A DNA stretch of 64,000 nucleotides, taken from assembly GCA_031835245.2 (NCBI GenBank), contig JAVKOQ020000017.1:124001-188000 (forward strand). Direction: 5' to 3'. Position 1 is the first letter of the stretch; each line of letters starts with the position of its first letter. The position numbers were made by a program, and so were the translations under genes. The DNA comes from Balamuthia mandrillaris. Taxonomy: Eukaryota. Below are positions 50,096 through 61,946 of this stretch, piece by piece. Below the pieces are notes generated by a model, which searched no databases, was not told where the DNA came from, and saw nothing but the letters and a program-made list of their open reading frames with translations.

Positions 50096-51430
50096 ATGAA
50101 AGGCTCATCCTTTCTTCACGCTCTTTTGGGGGCGTTGCTCTTGACCCTCACTCTCACTCATGCTCAACCGGCAGCGGAAACGACGCAAGGGGAATGCGCG
50201 GTCATCGTGGTGAACGCTCTTGCGGTGGAGGTCTCGGTCGGGTTTGATGTCGGTCCAAACGAGCTTGAGTCCTTGCCGCCGGGAGGTTGCCAGCTGACCT
50301 ACATCCCCTGCCAGCCCGACACCTTCCCCTTCGAAGTGGAAGTCTACATTTTCATTGAACAGAATTTGTTTCCTGTCATCGTTCCGTTCGACACTTCGAC
50401 AACCAGCCAACAAGAAGACCTCACAACAACCACGGAAGGCGGAGGAGGAGGGGGAGGAGGAACCTCTCGCTTCGTGCACTACCTCGTCCTCTCTCATCGC
50501 ATCCGATTGCCTCTGGAGGAGGAACGTCCGGAGGAACTCGTCGCTGCCTTTCCTTTCGACTACCAAGGGCAGACTCTACCGATTGCGCTGTTGTACGAAA
50601 AGGCGGAACTTCCCTCGGAGCCATTGGGAGAGGACGAGGTGGGCCTGGCTTTCTGGCATGTGGCCGCTGGCGCTCCTTTCGCATTGAGAGTGAGGCTGAC
50701 GGGGCCTGCTCTGGCTGCCTTGTTGGGAGAAGCGGGGATCGATGTGACGTTGGATCCCTACCAGCGAGTGGATTGGAGGATCATCCAACTCCCTCCACAA
50801 ACAGGCCAAGCCCCTGGTGGAATGGAACCACCCCCGACCGGAGGAGCTGGAGGAGGAGAAGAACAACCGCCACCGACGGGAGGAACCGGAGGAGGCGAAC
50901 AACCACCCTCCACAGGAGGCACCACAGGAGGCACCACGGGAGGAGGAGGAGGAGGAGGAGGAGGAGGAGAACCACAAAGACGACAAGAAGAGGGCATCGA
51001 ATTGACCATCGAGCCAGCAGTCCCACAGCAAGAGGTGCAGACAGCATTGGCAGGATTTGCAAGCTTCGCAGCGGCTGTGGCCGGTGGTGGTTCTCTGTTT
51101 GAAGAGAGCATTGAGGCGGCATTGCGGGAGAACGCAGGGGAGCTGCTGACGGTCTTCATCATCACGGACCCACCGGAGTTGCAACAGACAGCCACGGGTG
51201 GAGGAGGAGGGGTTGCAGCCCGGGTCTTCTTCACCAACTGCGCCACGGACGCCCTGGCTGGTCCTGGCGCAAGTCCTGGTGCTGGCACTGGCGCAGGGGC
51301 AGGCGGAGGGGCAGGCTTCTTGCCGACCATCGCAGCAGGAGGGACAGCAGGTTTCGTGCCGAGCGTTGCTGGCACAGGTGCAGGTGCAGGTGGAGGCTTG
51401 GTGGCGACTATCACCGAAGCTGAGAACTAA
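50096..51430 (+). CDS. Hypothetical secreted protein with Gly/Thr/Pro-rich linkers, intronless
   Basis: Signal peptide MKGSSFLHALLGALLLTLTLTHA; acidic beta-rich segments; PPPTGG repeats. Confidence 0.7.
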   Translation: MKGSSFLHALLGALLLTLTLTHAQPAAETTQGECAVIVVNALAVEVSVGFDVGPNELESLPPGGCQLTYIPCQPDTFPFEVEVYIFIEQNLFPVIVPFDTSTTSQQEDLTTTTEGGGGGGGGTSRFVHYLVLSHRIRLPLEEERPEELVAAFPFDYQGQTLPIALLYEKAELPSEPLGEDEVGLAFWHVAAGAPFALRVRLTGPALAALLGEAGIDVTLDPYQRVDWRIIQLPPQTGQAPGGMEPPPTGGAGGGEEQPPPTGGTGGGEQPPSTGGTTGGTTGGGGGGGGGGEPQRRQEEGIELTIEPAVPQQEVQTALAGFASFAAAVAGGGSLFEESIEAALRENAGELLTVFIITDPPELQQTATGGGGGVAARVFFTNCATDALAGPGASPGAGTGAGAGGGAGFLPTIAAGGTAGFVPSVAGTGAGAGGGLVATITEAEN

Positions 51431-51849: not shown

Positions 51850-52257
51850 ATGGCTGAAGGAGGAGCGGCGCTCACGATAGACAAGAAACAGGCCTTTGAG
51901 AGCTTGGCCAAAAATATGGTCTTCACAAAGGCCGATGGTATGGCAAAAAAAAAAACTTCTGCTCCCTGTTTCCCCTTTCTGCTATGTGTTGGGGTTAATG
52001 TTTTTTGTTTGAGCGCAGACAACATGAAAGCGTTCTTGTTTTCATACCACCAGTTCCTGCCGGAAGACGCGGACCTGTTTCGCATTTGGGTTGCTCAATA
52101 TCCTTTTTCTTTTTTTTTGTTTTCTTTTTGGTCTTTTGTCCCGTTTGGCGTGTCCTCCTTCCTTCACTCGAACCGATACGTTTGAGATGGCCTGCAACAA
52201 TGAACAACAAGGAAACAGAAAGTACAACGTCGAAAGGTATTTATTCTATTTGCTTTC

Positions 52258-52293
<36 letters not shown>

Positions 52294-55200
52294 CTCTTCC
52301 GTGTTTCTTCTATAACTTGCTTGGGTTTCTCCTTTCCGTTCCGTTCTTTCATTTTTGTCTTTCCTTCAACTGGAGTTGTTCTGACTTCACAAAAAAACGA
52401 AATAGGATGTTTGAGTTCTTGAAGTTTTGGTGGGAAATGCACCCGGAAGACTTCAACAAAGCCAACATCAACCTTTTGCTTCACGCCATGAAGGACCGTC
52501 GCCCCGATGCTCTCAACCACTTCAAACTCTTGTTCCTCAAAGCCCCGTCTCCTTCCTCGGCTCCTTCCTCTTCTGGTGAACCTAACAGCACAAGCAAAAC
52601 CGAACCGCAAGAAGAGATTGAAGACAAGACGGAAACCTGCAAAGCACGTTTGAAGAAATGTACATTTCGGGAACAGTTGGGTGCTGCTACAAACACAATA
52701 ACTGCAAAAGACTTTTTAGATGTGGCTACGGGACAGTTGGCAAAAGAGATGACCATGTTGGACTTTGAGCTGTTCAGCCGGGTCAAGTGTGGAGAGTTCT
52801 TGCACCATGTGTGGCATGCTTCGCAGCGTCAGACCTTGGCTCCCAACATCACCGCTTACATCGCACGTTTCAACGAGGTTTGCCCACTACTCTCTTGCTT
52901 TGTCAACTTGTTCTTCTGCTTCTTATTCAACTTCTTCCTCTTCCTTTTCGTCTTGTTCTCTTCCTCTTCCTCTCGATTTTTCGCTGTTTGACAAACACAA
53001 CCAGGTGAGTTATTGGGTTGTGACAGAGATCCTTATGACACGAAGGAAAGAGCAGATGATCGTATTGAGAAAGTTCATCCGACTTGCCAATAGCTTTTTG
53101 CAACTGAACAACTTCAACTCATTGATCACTATCATGTCAGCCCTCAACAACAGCACCATTACTCGATTGAAAGATGCTTGGGCGGTTCGTTCTTTCTTTC
53201 TTCTATGCTCCTCTCTCCTCTCTCTCGCTTGAGCTCTTATACTCAATTTTATGTTTAAGGCGTTACCTGAAAAAGACGTGGCAACATTTAGAAGCATGGA
53301 AGAGCTGTTGTCCAACCAACAGAACTTCAGCAATTATTTCCAAGAGTTCAAGAAGCGCCCTTTCCCTAAACTTCCTTACTTTGGTTCGTTTCTATGCTCT
53401 CTTTGGCCCGCTCTCTCTATTCTTAACTCAGCTCAACAGCGCTATTTCTGAGGGATTGTACATTCATCCACGATGGCAACAAACCGTACAACCGCCATGG
53501 CATGATCAACTTTGAATACATGACCATGCTCTACCAGTGCTTGCAAGCCGTGAGGGAATGCCAGAGCCATCCTTACGACTTGCCTCACCACAAAGACACC
53601 CAGGCCTTTCTTTGGAACTTAAATTACATTGATGACGAGGCATGTGAATCACTCTCTTTCTTTGTTCTCTCCGCAACAATAACAAATGGTGAAACAGGAC
53701 GCACTGTATATGCTCTCGTTGAAAGCCCAACCCAGCCTTTGGACTAATGAGGCTGTTGAGTAACTATATTCTCTAATGCTCGTACTTTCTACATAATCTA
53801 ATTTCAATGTTTCGTTGTTTATACAGAGAGGTGGTCAAAGAAGACGAGGATTCGAGCGATTCCTACTCTTGGAGCGACAGTCCATCGGCCACCTCCACTC
53901 CATTGGACAATTCCACGATAGAAGCTGAGGAAGGTACTCAAGATGACTTGACCTCCTTCGATGGTTACTCCGAAGACGAAGGTTTCTCCCTAGAGAAAAC
54001 AAGAAAACCTCGTCAACAAAAACAGCAGCCATCGGATAGTAAGCGTGTATCAACTTCCACGAAAAGGAGCTCCAAGCACAAGAAAGGAAAGAGGCACAGA
54101 AAGAAACTAGCATTGGATGGGGAGGCGCTAGATAAGGAAAAGATGGTGATTCGTAGTTTGAAGGGCGTTCCTCCGAGGCTGGTACCGTTCTTCTTCCATG
54201 CGGAACAAGTGGTGGACCAGTATTTTAGTAATTGCATCCATTCCGTTACAACAGGTATTCTATTCTCTATTTGCACTAGAGCTGGTTTCAAATCCTAACA
54301 TTGTTTTTTGAAAGGCACAATCTCCATTGACTTGAAGAATTGGAAACACAAAAACCTTTCCGAAAGCGGATATGGTGAAGAAGAAAGACTCATTCTTGTT
54401 CGAGCTACCGCCATGTCGGTGGACTTCTTCACAAGCCTGCGAGACAACTTTGGCTTCTTTGGTGTTCCAAAGAAGTCTCTTCAAACAGCTGCACAACGTC
54501 AACATACTCAAGCCATGCTAACAGGATTTGGTTTTACGCCGGTTTCAGCTGAATCTACTGGAACAGGAGAAAGTGTTATAGCGGAGAAGAAGGAAGAGAG
54601 CCTATTTGAGGACTATACGGAAGAAGTGACGGCCAAGTTGTTGTATGACTTTGGATACGTGAGCGGAATGGGCGATTGTCAAGCTTTTTCTAAATTCACT
54701 GGAGCCACGGGTCCTGATGTTTGGGCCATGGGACCTATTTGCTTTGTGTTAGTACTCCTGTTCTTGTTCTCCATCTTTTCTCATCTTATAGCGCCAACCT
54801 GTTCATTGATCTTGGCTTTTAGTTACTCGGGACGATGCAACAAGGAAATAGTTGACAATGACCGCGAGCTCGACCCCGATGACTTTTACTCCGAAGGAAT
54901 CATGCAGTTTAGCTTCGAAGCCGACTCTTGGGTGAAAAGCGGCAAGTTTCCTCCCAAACTGAATCCCATTTTCCTTCCCAAGAGAGAAACACCATCCACT
55001 ATGGACCCCAAAAACTGTACTTCCGTGTGTCATTACTGGTGTGGCTTTGCCGCAGGATGGACTTCAGCAGCGTTGGGGAAACAGTTCGTCTGCTGCGAAG
55101 CCCGATGCATGGGAAGAGGAGACCCGGTTTGCGTTGGCATATTGACATATCCTCATAAGCTGAACAAACACATCAAAGAGTACTACAAACGACATCACCT

Positions 55201-56669
55201 ACCAGATAAGAGCGCTCAAGTTCTTCAGTATAACTTTATGGATACTAAGGATGCTTTTGCTTCTTCCACCAAAGCCATTCTTTCAGCTGATCAACATGCT
55301 TCTTCGTCCTCATCTTCCGTAAACTCTTCTCTTGCCAACGAAAAGAAAAAGAACAAAGATTCTTCTTCACATCCACAAGGGAGCATCAAGTTTCCGGTGG
55401 TGGGAAGGAAGAAGCTTCCAGGACAGCTGGAATCCAGGTTGGACAATGCAGAACTCATCTCCACCACCACCAAAGAGGACCTGGCTCATCAGGAACAGAT
55501 CAAAGCCAAGCAGACAGCCATCTTCTCTCAACTGTTCAGCCAGCTGGTGTGCAATCCCAGCAAAGGGAAAGTGGCCTTGGAAACGAGTGGGGCAAGAGGG
55601 GAGAAAGCGGAGGAGAGGTATGTGTTCTTGAGGGCGGAGACCTTGTCCACCATGTTTTATGAGGTGGTCTCTTCTTTGATGGCCCAACGTGAAGAATCTG
55701 AAAAGAGCGATGATCAACCGAGAGGAGAGGGAGGAACTGGAAGAAAGGGAGGCCACTACCAGCAAGACAAAGAAGTGATTGCCCGCTCGTTTGCCACGAA
55801 CTTTTTGTACGACTTTGGAAGATGCTTTGCCAAGAGTGACTTCACATTCTTCACTCGCACTGCTGCTAACGCCGTTCCTGCTGCTTTGAAGTACGTTGCC
55901 TGTTGTGCATTCTCAATCTCTCTTCTGACGCATGAACACAACCTGCCTTACAGGTCAAAAGAAGAGCAATTCCTGCAAAGAATGTTCAGTCTGCCAGAGA
56001 TCCTTCGTCATGTGGGATGGGGCAAGCTCAGCATCCTTTCTTCCTTGTCTTTGTTGAACTATGATCCCAAGAACCGCTTCAAGCACTTTTTCCTTCGGTA
56101 TGCATTGTTTCCCTATCTTATCTTTACATTTTCAGATGTTGGCTGAAGCGTTTATTTGTACACACAGATACACGGTTAAAAACAGCTTTGAAGCATCTGT
56201 TTATGTTAAAGACCAATGGACCAAAGCGAAACAACAATTGAGCCAACAATCGGAAAAAAACAAAAGCAGTAAGACCCTGAAACAACTGCGGCAGCAATAC
56301 GTGCAACCCTCTCCTGTGTGTATCCTCAATTGCGGTTACGTCAACAGCTTCCTGGAGGAATGCATTCACTCTTGTGCTTCTCCCGTCGCTGCTTCTTCGG
56401 CTTCTTCTGTATCAGCGGCCACATCCGAACATCATCCCCACGACGAACGCGAAGTGCAACTGGGAACAGTGGAGGTGAGCTGCGTGGCATGCGGACACGA
56501 GACATGCGAGTTCCTGGTGGCCCCGGCCGAGCTGATGTTCGCTCACGTGATGAGGTACTTGAAGGAGAAAGGGAGAGAGGAGGAGGTGGGCAGGTTGCGG
56601 GGCTTGGAAATCGTGATGAGGAGGTTCAAGCATGGCAGAGGCTACTTCTCCCGTCTCTTCCGCAAGTAA
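51850..56669 (+). CDS. RasGEF (REM + CDC25) fused to tandem XylR_N/V4R domains, paralogue 1; multi-exon including U12 intron 52098-52179
   Basis: FLKFWWEMHPEDF, LAKEMTMLDFELF, FNEVSYWVVTEIL, LNNFNSLITIMSALN, PYFALFLRD; V4R motifs VCHYWCGFAAGW...EARCMGRGDPVC and PVCILNCGY...EVSCVACGHETCEF. Confidence 0.85.
52098..52179 (+). other. U12-type AT-AC intron (RasGEF-V4R paralogue 1)
   Basis: 5' ATATCCTTT, branch-like TCCTTCAC, 3' AC; removal gives in-frame WVAQ-FEMACNNEQQ. Confidence 0.85.
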
Positions 56670-56899
56670 CCTGCGATATACAAAATGTTTAACTTTTGTT
56701 TGTAATTTTTGTATGCATGAATTTTACAACAATAAAGAACGTCAACAACAATAGCAATATTTGGTCGCTGCATTGGCAATCGTACTAAAATGGTTATAAT
56801 AAATTAATGACATGTAATTTTGTAACACTTAATTTGGTTTCCACTTCCATAATTGATGGAGAAAACTAAACACCAGAAAAAATAAGCCGGCAACATAAG

Positions 56900-57534
56900 A
56901 TGGCAGAGGGAGAGGTGACCATCAGCAAACAACAGGCCTTTGAAAGCTTGGCCAAGAACATTGTATTTACGAAAGATGATGGTAGCGTTTTGTAATCATC
57001 CTCCCATCTCTCTCTCTCTCTCTCTCTCTCTCCAGCTGCATGAGCGATGTTTACTCTAAGAGATCTTTTGTTTTGCTGGCAACAGATAACATGAAAGCAT
57101 TTCTGTTTTCGTACCACCATTTTCTTCCGGATGGTGGCGACCTGTTCCAAGTGTGGCTCAATCAATATCCTTTTTTTCCCACAGGGCATCTCACTTCTCT
57201 TCTCCTCTCTTCTCTTCTGTGCAGTATGTTTCTCTACTTGCTTCATGTTTGCCTGTCACTCTCACTCATTCTCTCTCCCCACTCTCTTGTTCTCTCTCTC
57301 TCTCTCTCTCTCTCTCGCGCTACTCTTCTTCTCTCCTTTTGTTTGTTTTGTTTTCGTCGTTTTGTTAAGTACTTAACTTTCAGTGCTGTGAACATTTGAA
57401 ATGGCCTGCAACAACGAGCAACAAGGGAACAGAAAGTACAATGTCGAAAGGTATTTTCATCACTTCTTCGTTAGCTTATCTCTCCTTGCTTCATTACTAT
57501 CTTCATTAGCTTTTCTCTCCTTGCTTCGTTACTT

Positions 57535-57578
<44 letters not shown>

Positions 57579-60500
57579 CTCGCTCTCGTTCTAGCGTTCT
57601 CTCCTCCTCACTCTCACTCTCTCGCTCTCACAAACTAGGATGTTTGAGTTCCTGAAGTTTTGGTGGGAAATGCACCCGGAAGACTTCAACAAAGCCAACA
57701 TCAACCTTTTGCTTCACTCCATGAAGGACCGTCGCCCCAATGCTCTCAACCACTTCAAGCTTTTGTTCCTCAAGACCCCTCCTTCTTCATCAGAATCACT
57801 TTCTTCATCCTCCTCCTCATCTGAACGAGAAGAGAAAGCAAAAGAAGATTATGACGAAGGAGAGTCATCTTCTGCCGGTAAAGCACGTTTGAAGAGATGT
57901 TCCTTTGCGGCACAGTTGCTAGGCAGAGCAACAACAGCGACAACTGGAACAGACTTCTTGGAGGTGAGCAGCCACCTGCTGGCCAGAGAGATAACCATGT
58001 TGGACTTTGAGCTGTTCAGCAAGATCAAGTGCGGGGAGTTCTTGCACCACGTGTGGCATGCTTCGCAACGTCAGACCTTGGCTCCCAACATCACCGCTTA
58101 TATCGCACGTTTTAACGAGGTTTGCTGCTTTGACTTCTCTTCACCTTGTTGATGCCCTGCTAACTTCAATAGGTGAGCTATTGGGTGGTGACGGAGATTC
58201 TGATGACCAGGAGAAAGGAGCAGTCGATAGTGCTGAAGAAGTTCATTCGCCTGGCGTATTGCTTTTTGCAACTGAACAACTTCAACTCATTGATCACTAT
58301 CATGTCAGCCCTCAACAACAGCACCATTCGCCGCCTAAAAGAGGCTTGGGCGGTTCGTTCTCTTCTCTCTTGCTAGCTCTCCTTTGCAATGCGACTGATG
58401 AGGATAGTTGTTTAGGGTGTGTCAGAAAAAGAAATGACTAACTTCAGAAGCATGGAAGAGCTGTTGTCCAACCAACAGAACTTCAGCCATTACTTCCATG
58501 AGTTCAAGAGACGTCATTTTCCTAAACTCCCTTACTTTGGTGTGTTATTTTCTTTCTTCCTGGGCTTAACGCACACACTGACATGAGCTATGGCTTCTAT
58601 TAGCGCTGTTTCTGAGGGATTGTACATTCATCCACGATGGCAACAAACCGTACAACCGCCATGGCATGATCAACTTTGAATACATGACCATGCTCTACCA
58701 GTGCTTGCAAGCCGTGAGGGAATGCCAGAGCCATCCTTACGACTTGCCTCACCACAAAGACACCCAGGCCTTTCTTTGCAATCTGCATTACATTGATGAC
58801 GAGGTATGAGGACACTAAAGCCCCTCTTTCTCTCTCTATAATGACCGCTTATCTAACTTGTTTAAAAGGATGCTTTGTATATGCTCTCGTTGAAAGCCCA
58901 ACCCAGCCTTTGGGCAAACGATGCTGTTGGGTAAGCTTCTCTCTTCCATTTTGCTTCCATTTTTACTTCTTCTAAACCTTGTGCTTTTGCAACAGGGACG
59001 TAGTCAAAGAAGATGAAGATTCGAGCGATTCCTTCTCATGGAGCGACAGTCCTGCCGGCACTTCTTCCAACAATATGTCTCTCGCAGAAGCCCAGCAAGA
59101 GGTTACACATGAAGAAGATGTCTCGGCTTTCGATGGTGATTCTGACCACGAGGACGAAGCTGCGTCTCATAAACTTGCAAAACAACAACTGCAACAAGAA
59201 CTAACAAACAAGTTAAGTGGAGACAAGAATCGACCAGCAACAAAGAAGAAAAGTGGACCAAATAAACAAAGAAAGAAGCTAGTATTGGACGAAGCAGCGC
59301 TGCAAAAGGAGAAGATGGTAGTACGTAGCTTGCAAGGAGTACCTCCCAATCTGATCCCGTTCATGTACAAGGCGGAGCAAGTTGTGGATAAGTACTTTGG
59401 AGGTTGCGTCCATTCTGTAACAAATGGTTCGTGCTTCCTTCACGCCCGCTGTTTTGCGGTTTCTTCAAACACTCACAACACATTCGCAACATATAACATG
59501 AAACAGGAACCATTTCTATCGACTTAAGAGATTGGAACTCCTTCGGCGACGCTCGGATTGCCGAAGAAGCCAACAAAGAACGGATGATATTGGTTCGAGC
59601 AACGGCTCTCTCCGTGGACTTCTTCACCAGCCTTCGTGACAACTTTGGCTTCTTTGGTATTCCAAAGAAACAGCTGCAAACCGCCACGCAACGTCAACAA
59701 AAGAATCAAGCCATGCTCACTGGATTTGGTTTCACGCCGGTTGACGGAAGCGGTATAGCAGTAACAACCGTGGAGAAGAAGGAAGAGGATAATGTATTTG
59801 AGGACTATACGGAAGAAGTGACGGCCAAGTTGTTGTATGACTTTGGATACGTGAGCGGAATGGGCGATTGTCAAGCTGTATCGAAGATCACCGGAGCCAC
59901 GGGCATGGATGTTTGGGCCATGGGACCTGTTGTTTTTGTGTATGTTGACTTTTGAAATCCCGGTTTGTTCTTTTCTGCTCTTCTTTCTGTAACGCTCATA
60001 GAAATATACAGCTATTCAGGCCGATCCAACTCCAAATTCTCAGGCAAAGACGAAGAAGACAGCGCCCCTCCCAACCCTGAAGACATCTACTCGGAAGCGC
60101 ACCTCACCTTCTGCTTTGAGTCCGATTCCTGGCTCAAGAGTCATTGCCCTCTTCCCAAAATGAATTCCTCCATCCTTCTTCAAAGCAACAAGAAAGACAA
60201 AGCCGCTGCTGCTTCTTCTTCGAATGGCACTTCAGTTTGTCATTACGTCTGCGGATTCTCTGCAGGATGGACCTCAGCTGCTTTTGGAGTGGAATACAGC
60301 TGCGTGGAGTTGAACTGCATGGCCAAAGGAGACTCTCATTGCGTCTTCTTGCTGTGCCGCCCTCAACGCTTGCGACGCGCCATTCGAGAGTACTATAAAA
60401 AGCAAAACGTGCCAGACCGAAGCGAACAGATCGTGAAATACAAGTTTATGGACACCACGGAAGCTTTCGCTTCCTCCACCAAAGCCATTCTCTCTTCTGA

Positions 60501-61125
60501 TCTTTCCTCTTCTTCGACTGTTGATACAAAGGCTTCCACCAAAAAAGAGGAGAAAGACAAGAAGAAGAAGACGCAGGGGAGCATCAAGTTCCCGGTGGTG
60601 GGAAGGAAGAAGCTTCCAGGACAGCTGGAATCCAGGTTGGACAATGCAGAACTCATCTCCACCACCACCAAAGAGGATCTGGCTCATCAGGAACAGATCA
60701 AAGCCAAGCAGACGGCCATCTTCTCTCAACTGTTCAGCCAGCTGGTGTGCAATCCCAGCAAAGGGAAAGTGGCCTTGGAAACGAGTGGAGCAAGAGGGGA
60801 GAAAGCGGAGGAGAGGTATGTGTTCTTGAGGGCGGAGACCTTGTCCACCATGTTTTATGAGGTGGTCTCTTCTTTGATGGCCCAACGCCAAGAATCTGAA
60901 GAAGCAGAGCAGGAGCGGCACAAGACGGAAGGAGAAAAGAAGGAAGAGCAAGAGATGTTGGCTCGTTCGTTTGCCACGAACTTTTTGTACGACTTTGGAA
61001 GATGCTTTGCTCGAAGCGACTTTGCGTTTTTCACTCGGGTGACGGCGTCAATGGGAAGAAACACCCCAGCTTCCATGCCCATGTACGTTATTACTTTCTT
61101 GTTCTTCTCTTTATTACCTGTTGTT

Positions 61126-61157
<32 letters not shown>

Positions 61158-61946
61158 TTCTAGCACAGAAGACTGGACTTATCATTGTTATTATGGTTGA
61201 TATAGGTCGAAAGAAGAGCAATTCCTTCAAAGAGTGTTCAACCTGCCAGAGATCCTTCGACATGTGGGATGGGGCAAGCTCAGCATCCTTTCTTCTTTGT
61301 CTTTGTTGAACTATGATCCCAAGAACCGCTTCAAGCACTTTTTCCTTCGGTATGCATTGTTTCCCTATCTTCTCTTTACATTTGATAACTAAAGTCATTC
61401 ATTAACTCTTCTCTTTTTTGCATCTTTGTGTTGCTGAAACGAAATGAATCAAACAGATACACCGTCAAGGAGAGCTTCGAGGCAGCCGTTCATCTCAAGG
61501 ACCAATGGACCAAAGCTTTTCAACAATTCAATGAACAACGCTCCTCATCTCAACACGACAAGCACAACAACATCAGAACTCTGAAACAACTGCGGCAACA
61601 ACACGTACAATCTTCTCCGGTATGCATCCTCAACTGCGGCTACGTCAACAGCTTCCTGGAGGAATGCATCTCTGCTTCCTCCTCCTTTGAATCCAACAAA
61701 GACCAGAGCGAAGAGGCAACACCAGCGGCAGTGCAACTGGGAACAGTGGAGGTGAGCTGCGTGGCATGCGGACACGAGACATGCGAGTTCCTGGTGGCCC
61801 CGGCCGAGCTGATGTTTGCTCACGTGATGAGGTACTTGAAGGAGAAAGGGAGAGAGGAGGAGGTGGGCAGGTTGCGGGGCTTGGAAATCGTGATGAGGAG
61901 GTTCAAGCATGGCAGAGGCTACTTCTCCCGTCTCTTCCGCAAGTAA
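56900..61946 (+). CDS. RasGEF fused to tandem XylR_N/V4R domains, paralogue 2; multi-exon including U12 intron 57165-57393
   Basis: Same exon series and motifs as paralogue 1; VCHYVCGFSAGW...ELNCMAKGDSHC; identical C-terminus ...GYFSRLFRK. Confidence 0.85.
57165..57393 (+). other. U12-type AT-AC intron (RasGEF-V4R paralogue 2)
   Basis: 5' ATATCCTTT, branch-like TACTTAAC, 3' AC; removal gives in-frame WLNQ-FEMACNNEQQ. Confidence 0.85.

Follow-up and report, generated by a model that had tools for sequence, protein, structure and literature searches.

In a 64,000-nucleotide stretch of the Balamuthia mandrillaris genome (contig JAVKOQ020000017.1; hereafter, the window), which is eukaryotic and rich in introns, two intact paralogues lie head to tail at positions 51850-61946, on the forward (+) strand, as do all the features of the window described below. 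Gene A (51850-56669) and gene B (56900-61946) are formed by 13 exons each, with an open spliced frame, and code for proteins of 1278 and 1277 residues, respectively, which are 70% identical; both have the same layout, a REM-CDC25 Ras guanine nucleotide exchange factor (RasGEF), an acidic/basic linker and two modules of the V4R family, related to those of bacterial sensors. Gene A corresponds, with exon-by-exon identity, to B. mandrillaris QOT17_003230 (P0002 in our numbering of NCBI proteins). The fusion is real and expressed, appears to be undescribed, and points to a signalling cassette that is spread across amoebae.

Module 1 comprises residues 535-833 of gene A (54167-55198) and 536-842 of gene B (59336-60408), and module 2 residues 933-1248 (55496-56576) and 938-1247 (60694-61853), respectively. 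A V4R profile of 225 positions, whose seed was 119 single-module sequences of prokaryote type, with eukaryote-type proteins removed, spans both modules end to end, with 159 bits for gene A and 153 bits for gene B; among 400 shuffled sequences, 193 of which were reported with a score, the highest value was 9.5 bits. Within module 2, profile positions 13-222 are covered, with 64 and 53 bits. The zinc-site residues are C777, E800, C803 and C811 in module 1 and C1163, E1214, C1217 and C1225 in module 2 of gene A, and C786, E809, C812 and C820, and C1171, E1213, C1216 and C1224, in the respective modules of gene B; the Cys/Glu/Cys/Cys set is thus complete in all four, and zinc is bound in DmpR by Cys151, Glu172, Cys177 and Cys185 (PMC7264223). 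An earlier interpretation of this DNA, made from the letters alone (the sequence-only reading), had proposed two XylR_N/V4R modules per paralogue with the V4R metal-site pattern; both proposals were borne out, and every motif that it listed is present. Pfam, run on the matching NCBI proteins, reported two weak V4R stretches, with XylR_N under its cut-off, the weakness being due to long low-complexity inserts in the modules; in the exon-11 frame of gene B, module 1 scored above the cut-off (1.5e-8). Only RasGEF-family and V4R-family domains were near or above the Pfam cut-offs, with no AAA+ or DNA-binding output domain, and NCBIfam gave nothing above cut-off. Modules 1 and 2 are 19% identical to each other. 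Among 48 modules from 24 amoebozoan-type proteins, with a mean identity of about 28%, all four zinc-site residues are found in 46 (23 of 24 first and 23 of 24 second modules), and the SFE motif beside the pocket is highly conserved, its Glu being present in 47.

The REM-CDC25 part occupies approximately residues 10-412 of gene A (51877-53733) and 8-413 of gene B (56921-58904), limits that are estimates. On P0002 the CDC25 homology domain (PF00617) scored 181 bits (2e-53), where the curated cut-off is 23, and the exon frames of gene B matched Pfam RasGEF at 1.4e-17 and 1.5e-10. RasGEF_N (PF00618) is under the Pfam cut-off (17 vs 28 bits on P0001, another paralogue); the REM domain is seen as a confident helical domain, at residues 26-119, in a full-length model of paralogue P0004, which aligns over about 450 columns with REM-CDC25 structures (e.g., 7nzz, E 1.4e-11) and whose top 50 Foldseek rows are RasGEF rows only. 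The canonical REM-CDC25 RasGEF that had been claimed for both paralogues is therefore confirmed, by the Pfam RasGEF match of about 1e-53 and, for REM, by the P0004 model. The top PDB match of gene A in phmmer is Epac2 (1.9e-33), with a CDC25 alignment of 250 residues and short gaps only. The best CDC25 scores, for Epac2 (Rap; 118.6 bits), RalGPS1 (116.8) and RasGRF1 (103.9), are too close for a GTPase substrate to be assigned.

To represent the V4R region, a model was made from paralogue P0001, which is 71% identical to gene B, with a 32-row alignment. The mean predicted local distance difference test value was 80.5. The predicted template modelling score (pTM) was 0.85, although the modules are joined by a linker of low confidence. 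Module 1 of this model matched PoxR with a Z score of 17.9, over 196 of 200 residues and with a root-mean-square deviation of 3.0, followed by MopR (16.9) and DmpR (16.3), and the same three proteins were the top Foldseek rows for the V4R region; weaker matches were to TRAPP subunits (Z at most 10.9), MJ1460 (10.4), Thor-TRAPPC3 (9.1) and H-NOX (5.5). The secondary structure of module 2 repeats the pattern of module 1, and its assignment rests on this repetition together with the profile match and the motifs. The sensory domains of DmpR form an interlocked homodimer (PMC7264223); because the pTM is high across the low-confidence linker, the model suggests that the two modules pack as a single-chain interlocked dimer like that of DmpR.

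The exon models were derived from splice signals and place the exons of gene A at 51850-51937, 52019-52097, 52180-52236, 52406-52877, 53005-53184, 53260-53383, 53440-53639, 53698-53759, 53827-54254, 54315-54747, 54823-55890, 55954-56097 and 56168-56669, and those of gene B at 56900-56981, 57086-57164, 57394-57450, 57639-58119, 58173-58352, 58416-58539, 58604-58803, 58869-58930, 58996-59426, 59507-59939, 60012-61082, 61206-61349 and 61457-61946. The 12 introns of each gene have identical positions and phases; their borders are GT-AG, except for one GC-AG intron in gene A and one AT-AC intron in each gene. The latter, intron 2 (52098-52179 in gene A and 57165-57393 in gene B), is of the U12 type, starts with ATATCCTTT and ends with AC, and its removal restores an identical frame in both genes; no joint for it was found among the RNA joints listed, the reads nearby being cut at repeats. 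These minor-spliceosome-type introns fall in the REM-coding region. The public model of QOT17_003230 begins at Met59 of our gene A model, just past the AT-AC intron, and retains intron 10, and the NCBI models of paralogues P0003 and P0004 are without part of the AT-AC intron/REM region.

RNA reads and contigs gave joints at four of the 12 introns of gene A (1, 5, 11 and 12) and at eight of the 12 of gene B (3, 4 and 7-12); RNA depth was low and reads were taken at 90% likeness, so that some may stem from other paralogues. Splicing of intron 8 of gene B (58931-58995), which links the final CDC25 exon with the one containing the start of module 1, was seen in three reads from two starts in run X5; contigs of runs X2 and X3 cross this intron unspliced, and its counterpart in gene A (53760-53826) has no joint among those listed. 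In the RNA runs examined, no single read or contig reaches from CDC25 to the V4R core. Within the limits of short reads, the spliced intron 8 agrees with a single RasGEF-V4R transcript, as had been proposed. The fusion is reproduced in transcript assemblies of the amoebae Luapelamoeba (with an open reading frame of the type complete), Cavostelium and Protostelium.

Searched against 1.84 billion representatives, the two-module region found 408 matches with E no higher than 0.001. The listing gave 150 of them; 46 of these 150, and P0002, were scanned with Pfam, and 30 proteins were looked up by name. In the scanned set, the cassette is joined to a RasGEF in 12 cases, to a protein kinase in three and to a Ras GTPase-activating protein (RasGAP) domain in two. 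By counts taken from protein records, Balamuthia has at least eight genes for a RasGEF with two V4R modules (NCBI P0001-P0004, P0159, P0013 and P0021, and gene B). RasGEF fusions are also found in Dracoamoeba (Discosea), in Cavostelium and Planoprotostelium (Evosea), in Luapelamoeba, which we take to belong to Discosea, and in Protostelium nocturnum, presumably a member of Evosea. In Rhizamoeba (Tubulinea) the cassette sits on a kinase (P0043), and in Balamuthia it is found in addition on two RasGAP-domain proteins and on a protein named by NCBI as a PPM phosphatase; the proteins with a RasGAP, kinase or PPM-phosphatase-named output are P0019, P0033, P0028 and P0015 in Balamuthia, P0043, and P0020 and P0029. 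Reuse on RasGEF, kinase and RasGAP is the pattern of a portable input domain, and the tandem cassette may feed both the on- and the off-switches of Ras signalling. All eukaryotes with the cassette among the 30 proteins looked up by name are amoebozoans; neither Acanthamoeba nor Dictyostelium was among these names, which, with 30 proteins looked up, does not imply absence. A further copy is carried by a giant virus (L001:1920-5204, on a metagenome-assembled IMG/VR contig of 19,194 bases), as an intronless frame of 1094 residues for a RasGEF and two V4R modules with all zinc-site residues; it was the sole viral match in two viral scans and was likely captured from an amoebozoan host. Its surroundings hold short, dense open reading frames, including ankyrin repeats, and near-identical proteins are found on two further contigs, one of them of 72 kb.

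Among prokaryotic sequences, those nearest to the cassette are V4R domains that occur singly in histidine kinases and EAL proteins; these are 30-34% identical to A and B, and the order of their motifs matches over the full 225 positions. The least diverged amoebozoan module, module 1 of Luapelamoeba, is 46% identical to a bacterial sensor in the alignment and reaches 50% identity with prokaryotic signalling proteins; its 101 non-self matches all carry kinase, PAS, GAF, EAL/GGDEF or HD-type domains, and bacteria account for all 11 that come with an organism name. A scan of GTDB genomes gave 570 confirmed places, and the 79 loci returned were all bacterial, mostly from Bacteroidota and Planctomycetota. 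The bacterial family (L002-L080; P0005-P0010), found on histidine kinases and GGDEF/EAL proteins, has Phe/His where phenol sensors have His/Trp. The trees included a quick one under a mixture model, with 94 rows (the long rows L082, L088, Planoprotostelium module 1 and P0139 module 1 were dropped), and a careful one, also used for approximately unbiased (AU) tests, with 40 of 98 rows and a simpler model; no named Asgard sequence was in the trees. In both of these, a branch with a support of 100 (100/100 in the 40-row tree) separates the XylR-type rows from the amoebozoan and kinase-type modules; in an additional tree, two of eight plasmid rows were also on the amoebozoan/kinase-type side. The kinship with bacterial sensors put forward by the sequence-only reading thus stands, but not its choice of XylR/DmpR as the nearest of them, as the histidine-kinase/EAL-type modules are closer both by identity and in the trees.

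The second modules form one clade in the quick tree (24 of 24; Shimodaira-Hasegawa-like approximate likelihood ratio test, SH-aLRT, 100), as do the eight of them in the 40-row tree (100/99), and a single origin of the tandem is therefore likely, earlier than the divergence of the three phyla and than its fusion to different outputs. Any transfer would be ancient, because the cassette is common to three amoebozoan phyla. From sequence similarity and the patchy eukaryotic range, an ancient gain from bacteria would be the likeliest origin, and the cassette most likely derives from a bacterial histidine-kinase-type sensor that was duplicated once, before the split of Discosea, Evosea and Tubulinea. 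The phylogeny supports the expected grouping with bacterial modules, here of the kinase type, but not the direction from bacteria to amoebae: the amoebozoan modules are nested in bacteria in the quick tree (SH-aLRT 85-91) and not in the 40-row tree, and neither monophyly of the bacterial modules (p 0.51) nor that of the eukaryotic ones (p 0.43) is rejected by the AU tests, so that the trees do not fix the donor or the direction of transfer. The same tests, and trees in which Asgard is not represented by name, leave room for an alternative that concerns the origin only, vertical inheritance of the module from an archaeal (Asgard) V4R protein and its retention in Amoebozoa. Asgard archaea do have V4R/TRAPPC3 proteins, one of them predicted to be PoxR-like (PMC10933270), and a Thorarchaeota cluster ranked 10th in an atlas search with module 2, with a score of 0.85, a lead only, like the other atlas scores (0.85-0.87). 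Nevertheless, we regard this descent as improbable: the named matches of the Luapelamoeba module are bacterial without exception, Thor-TRAPPC3 has four cysteines (PMC10933270) and a structural match of Z 9.1 vs 17.9 for PoxR, and the named eukaryotes are exclusively amoebozoans.

As to function, we see about an even chance that these proteins are ligand-regulated exchange factors, in which a single-chain V4R pseudo-dimer would bind an apolar small molecule and alter Ras/Rap exchange by contact or localisation. The REM-CDC25 exchange factor is followed by the two V4R modules, which are predicted to pack into one zinc-braced pseudo-dimer; the likely ligand of the latter is a small apolar compound, phenol being improbable, and its binding would tune exchange on a Ras- or Rap-type GTPase. 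Bacterial V4R sensors being interlocked homodimers, the same dimer within one chain would allow a monomeric enzyme to carry a dimeric sensor. In DmpR, the phenol hydroxyl is held between His100 and Trp128 (PMC7264223), the columns of which were placed in our own alignment with the help of a XylR-type row and of an alignment to MopR. At these columns module 1 has F/M in gene A and F/L in gene B, and module 2 has L/V; second modules are apolar, uniformly aliphatic, at both positions (24 of 24), and first modules are variable. Module 1, with its variable pocket residues and closest to the bacterial sensors, would be the likelier ligand site, and module 2, with aliphatic residues at both positions, may be a structural partner or may bind a lipid-like ligand. 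A bound ligand would move the cassette relative to CDC25, or would alter membrane access via the basic C-terminal tail. This tail, basic and aromatic (56620-56669 and 61897-61946), is found in six close Balamuthia paralogues and not in other species, and is possibly a membrane anchor; no transmembrane segment was found in A or B, the top 19-residue hydropathy values being 1.03 and 1.14.

Several findings weigh against a ligand-gated exchange factor. None of the 48 modules has the phenol pair (His 0/48 and Trp 0/48), so that an aromatic-alcohol or phenol ligand is unsupported; the zinc of MopR is, moreover, described as structural and not as the sensing site (PMC9556785), and the aromatic-ligand sensing of the sequence-only reading finds no support. 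The Phe/His pair, which the bacterial kinase-type modules have without exception (42 of 42), remains in one of 24 amoebozoan first modules; the amoebozoan pocket may have decayed, and in the parts of the literature searched we found no characterised ligand or member of the bacterial kinase-type family. The structural rows bear mostly on module 1, no sign of a fixed arrangement is given by the full-length model of P0004 (pTM 0.56), and in it about 100-120 low-confidence residues lie between CDC25 and module 1. A complex prediction between the CDC25 domain and the two-module region of P0004 scored 0.00 without alignment input and has no bearing either way. The absence of a conserved module 1 pocket next to conserved zinc-site residues, the long, low-confidence linker and the tail common to Balamuthia paralogues are also what would be expected if the tandem were an exapted scaffold, like TRAPP Bet3, with no specific sensing, a stable unit braced by zinc that would position the GEF, GAP or kinase by docking or by targeting it to membranes; V4R is, in addition, the likely ancestor of Bet3 (PMC2253512). 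We hold this to be rather unlikely, as the fold is far nearer to the ligand-binding PoxR and MopR (Z 17-18) than to Bet3 (at most 11), the SFE motif next to the pocket is conserved, and Luapelamoeba module 1 has kept its likeness to a bacterial sensor. A thiol, redox or zinc switch, in which oxidation or loss of zinc and not an organic ligand would regulate the GEF, draws on the cysteines being the best-conserved feature of the modules and on the redox-sensitive V4R protein MsvR of methanogens (PMC3729527); it seems improbable to us, given that the same residues serve a structural zinc in MopR, PoxR and DmpR, and their conservation needs no sensing role. Finally, the stop that follows exon 8 in unspliced gene A, the low RNA depth and the lack of a read or contig spanning CDC25 to the V4R core would fit an annotation artefact, with RasGEF and V4R as separate genes or V4R as a bacterial contaminant. 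This we consider most improbable, with intron 8 of gene B spliced in RNA, the V4R exons interrupted by spliceosomal introns whose splicing is seen in RNA, and the same fusion in the transcript assemblies of three other amoebae and in a single intronless frame on the giant-virus contig.

Amoebal chemical sensing upstream of Ras has been mapped mostly in Dictyostelium, via surface receptors. If the ligand-gated reading is true, Ras regulators with a built-in bacterial-type pocket would be a direct, receptor-free input, and a class of ligand-gated RasGEF would exist on a fold other than cyclic nucleotide monophosphate (cNMP), C1 or EF-hand, one member of which was captured by a giant virus. In its widest form, the proposal is of an undescribed family of intracellular one-component receptors in Amoebozoa, a bacterial sensor captured once, duplicated to a pseudo-dimer within one chain and attached to RasGEFs, RasGAPs and protein kinases, through which apolar metabolites, for example from prey bacteria, would switch Ras signalling on or off directly; we advance it tentatively, as possible and still on the doubtful side. 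The cassette is present in culturable free-living relatives as well as in Balamuthia. A confirmed pocket would probably be a site specific to amoebae, in a pathogen for which drug targets are few; if there is no ligand, the cassette is still an unreported amoeba-wide signalling domain.

The two genes are not uniformly diverged. In CDC25, 208 of 238 residues are identical, and patches of near-identity lie at 55394-55689 vs 60592-60887 and at 56453-56669 vs 61730-61946; synonymous codon differences are 6% at residues 893-1000 and 1% at residues 1206-1278, vs 19-47% in most other regions. These patches reflect either recent gene conversion or paralogues mixed in the assembly. Outside the window, P0001 (QOT17_003235) is an extra paralogue five locus numbers off the record of gene A, and the paralogue cluster may hold three or more copies. 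Upstream of gene A, at 50099-51430, lies an intronless frame of about 440 residues, with a signal-peptide-like start and Gly/Pro/Thr-rich stretches, for which no Pfam family was found at E up to 1.

The sequence-only reading did not recognise the architecture from model eukaryotes. The fusion is absent from the full-text literature searched, although supplements, subscription papers and InterPro architecture pages may mention it; it is visible in automatic annotations, and its occurrence in both Discosea and Evosea makes it old and widespread. A search for V4R with Acanthamoeba returned only an irrelevant paper, a supplement of a Balamuthia annotation paper had no match, and the main text of a census of 25 Dictyostelium RasGEFs does not mention V4R (PMC1273635). 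Compared with XylR, DmpR, MopR and PoxR (Pfam XylR_N PF06505 and V4R PF02830; PDB 5FRU-5FRZ, 5KBE and 6IY8), the amoebozoan modules share the whole-domain fold (Z 16-18), the C/E/C/C zinc-site pattern and an N-terminal arm that aligns; they differ in lacking the His/Trp pair, in an identity of 20-22%, in the 100/100 branch that separates them, in having two copies per chain with long inserts, and in a RasGEF output in place of an AAA+ transcription activator. Membership in the phenol-responsive MopR/DmpR/PoxR subfamily was rejected on the missing pair (0/48) and the missing AAA+/DNA-binding output. The closest sequences are the V4R inputs of bacterial kinase, GGDEF and EAL proteins (e.g., P0005-P0010; Bacteroidota, Planctomycetota, Elusimicrobiota and Acidobacteriota), which have one N-terminal module, a two-component or cyclic diguanylate output and an invariant Phe/His pair that is mostly lost in amoebae. 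With Epac (RapGEF3/4) and the Dictyostelium proteins GbpC and GbpD, genes A and B have in common a small-molecule-binding domain, here a predicted one, and REM-CDC25 in one chain; in GbpD (RasGEFU), too, the ligand domains come after the catalytic domains (PMC1273635). Unlike them, A and B have a V4R and not a cNMP sensor fold, have no DEP, RA or cNMP domain, and their control by a ligand is inferred. The TRAPP subunits Bet3, Trs31 and Trs33 and Asgard TRAPPC3 share the fold superfamily (Z 9-11) and a link to small-GTPase exchange, whereas identity to them is 11-15% and they are individual subunits within a Rab GEF complex; the zinc site is missing from mouse TRAPPC3 (PMC10933270). An identity of the modules as TRAPP Bet3/TRAPPC3 was rejected (Z at most 10.9 vs 17.9 for PoxR, with the C/E/C/C residues present). 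With the amoebozoan modules, eukaryotes have put the V4R fold to use a second time, independently of TRAPP and once more in connection with the control of small GTPases.

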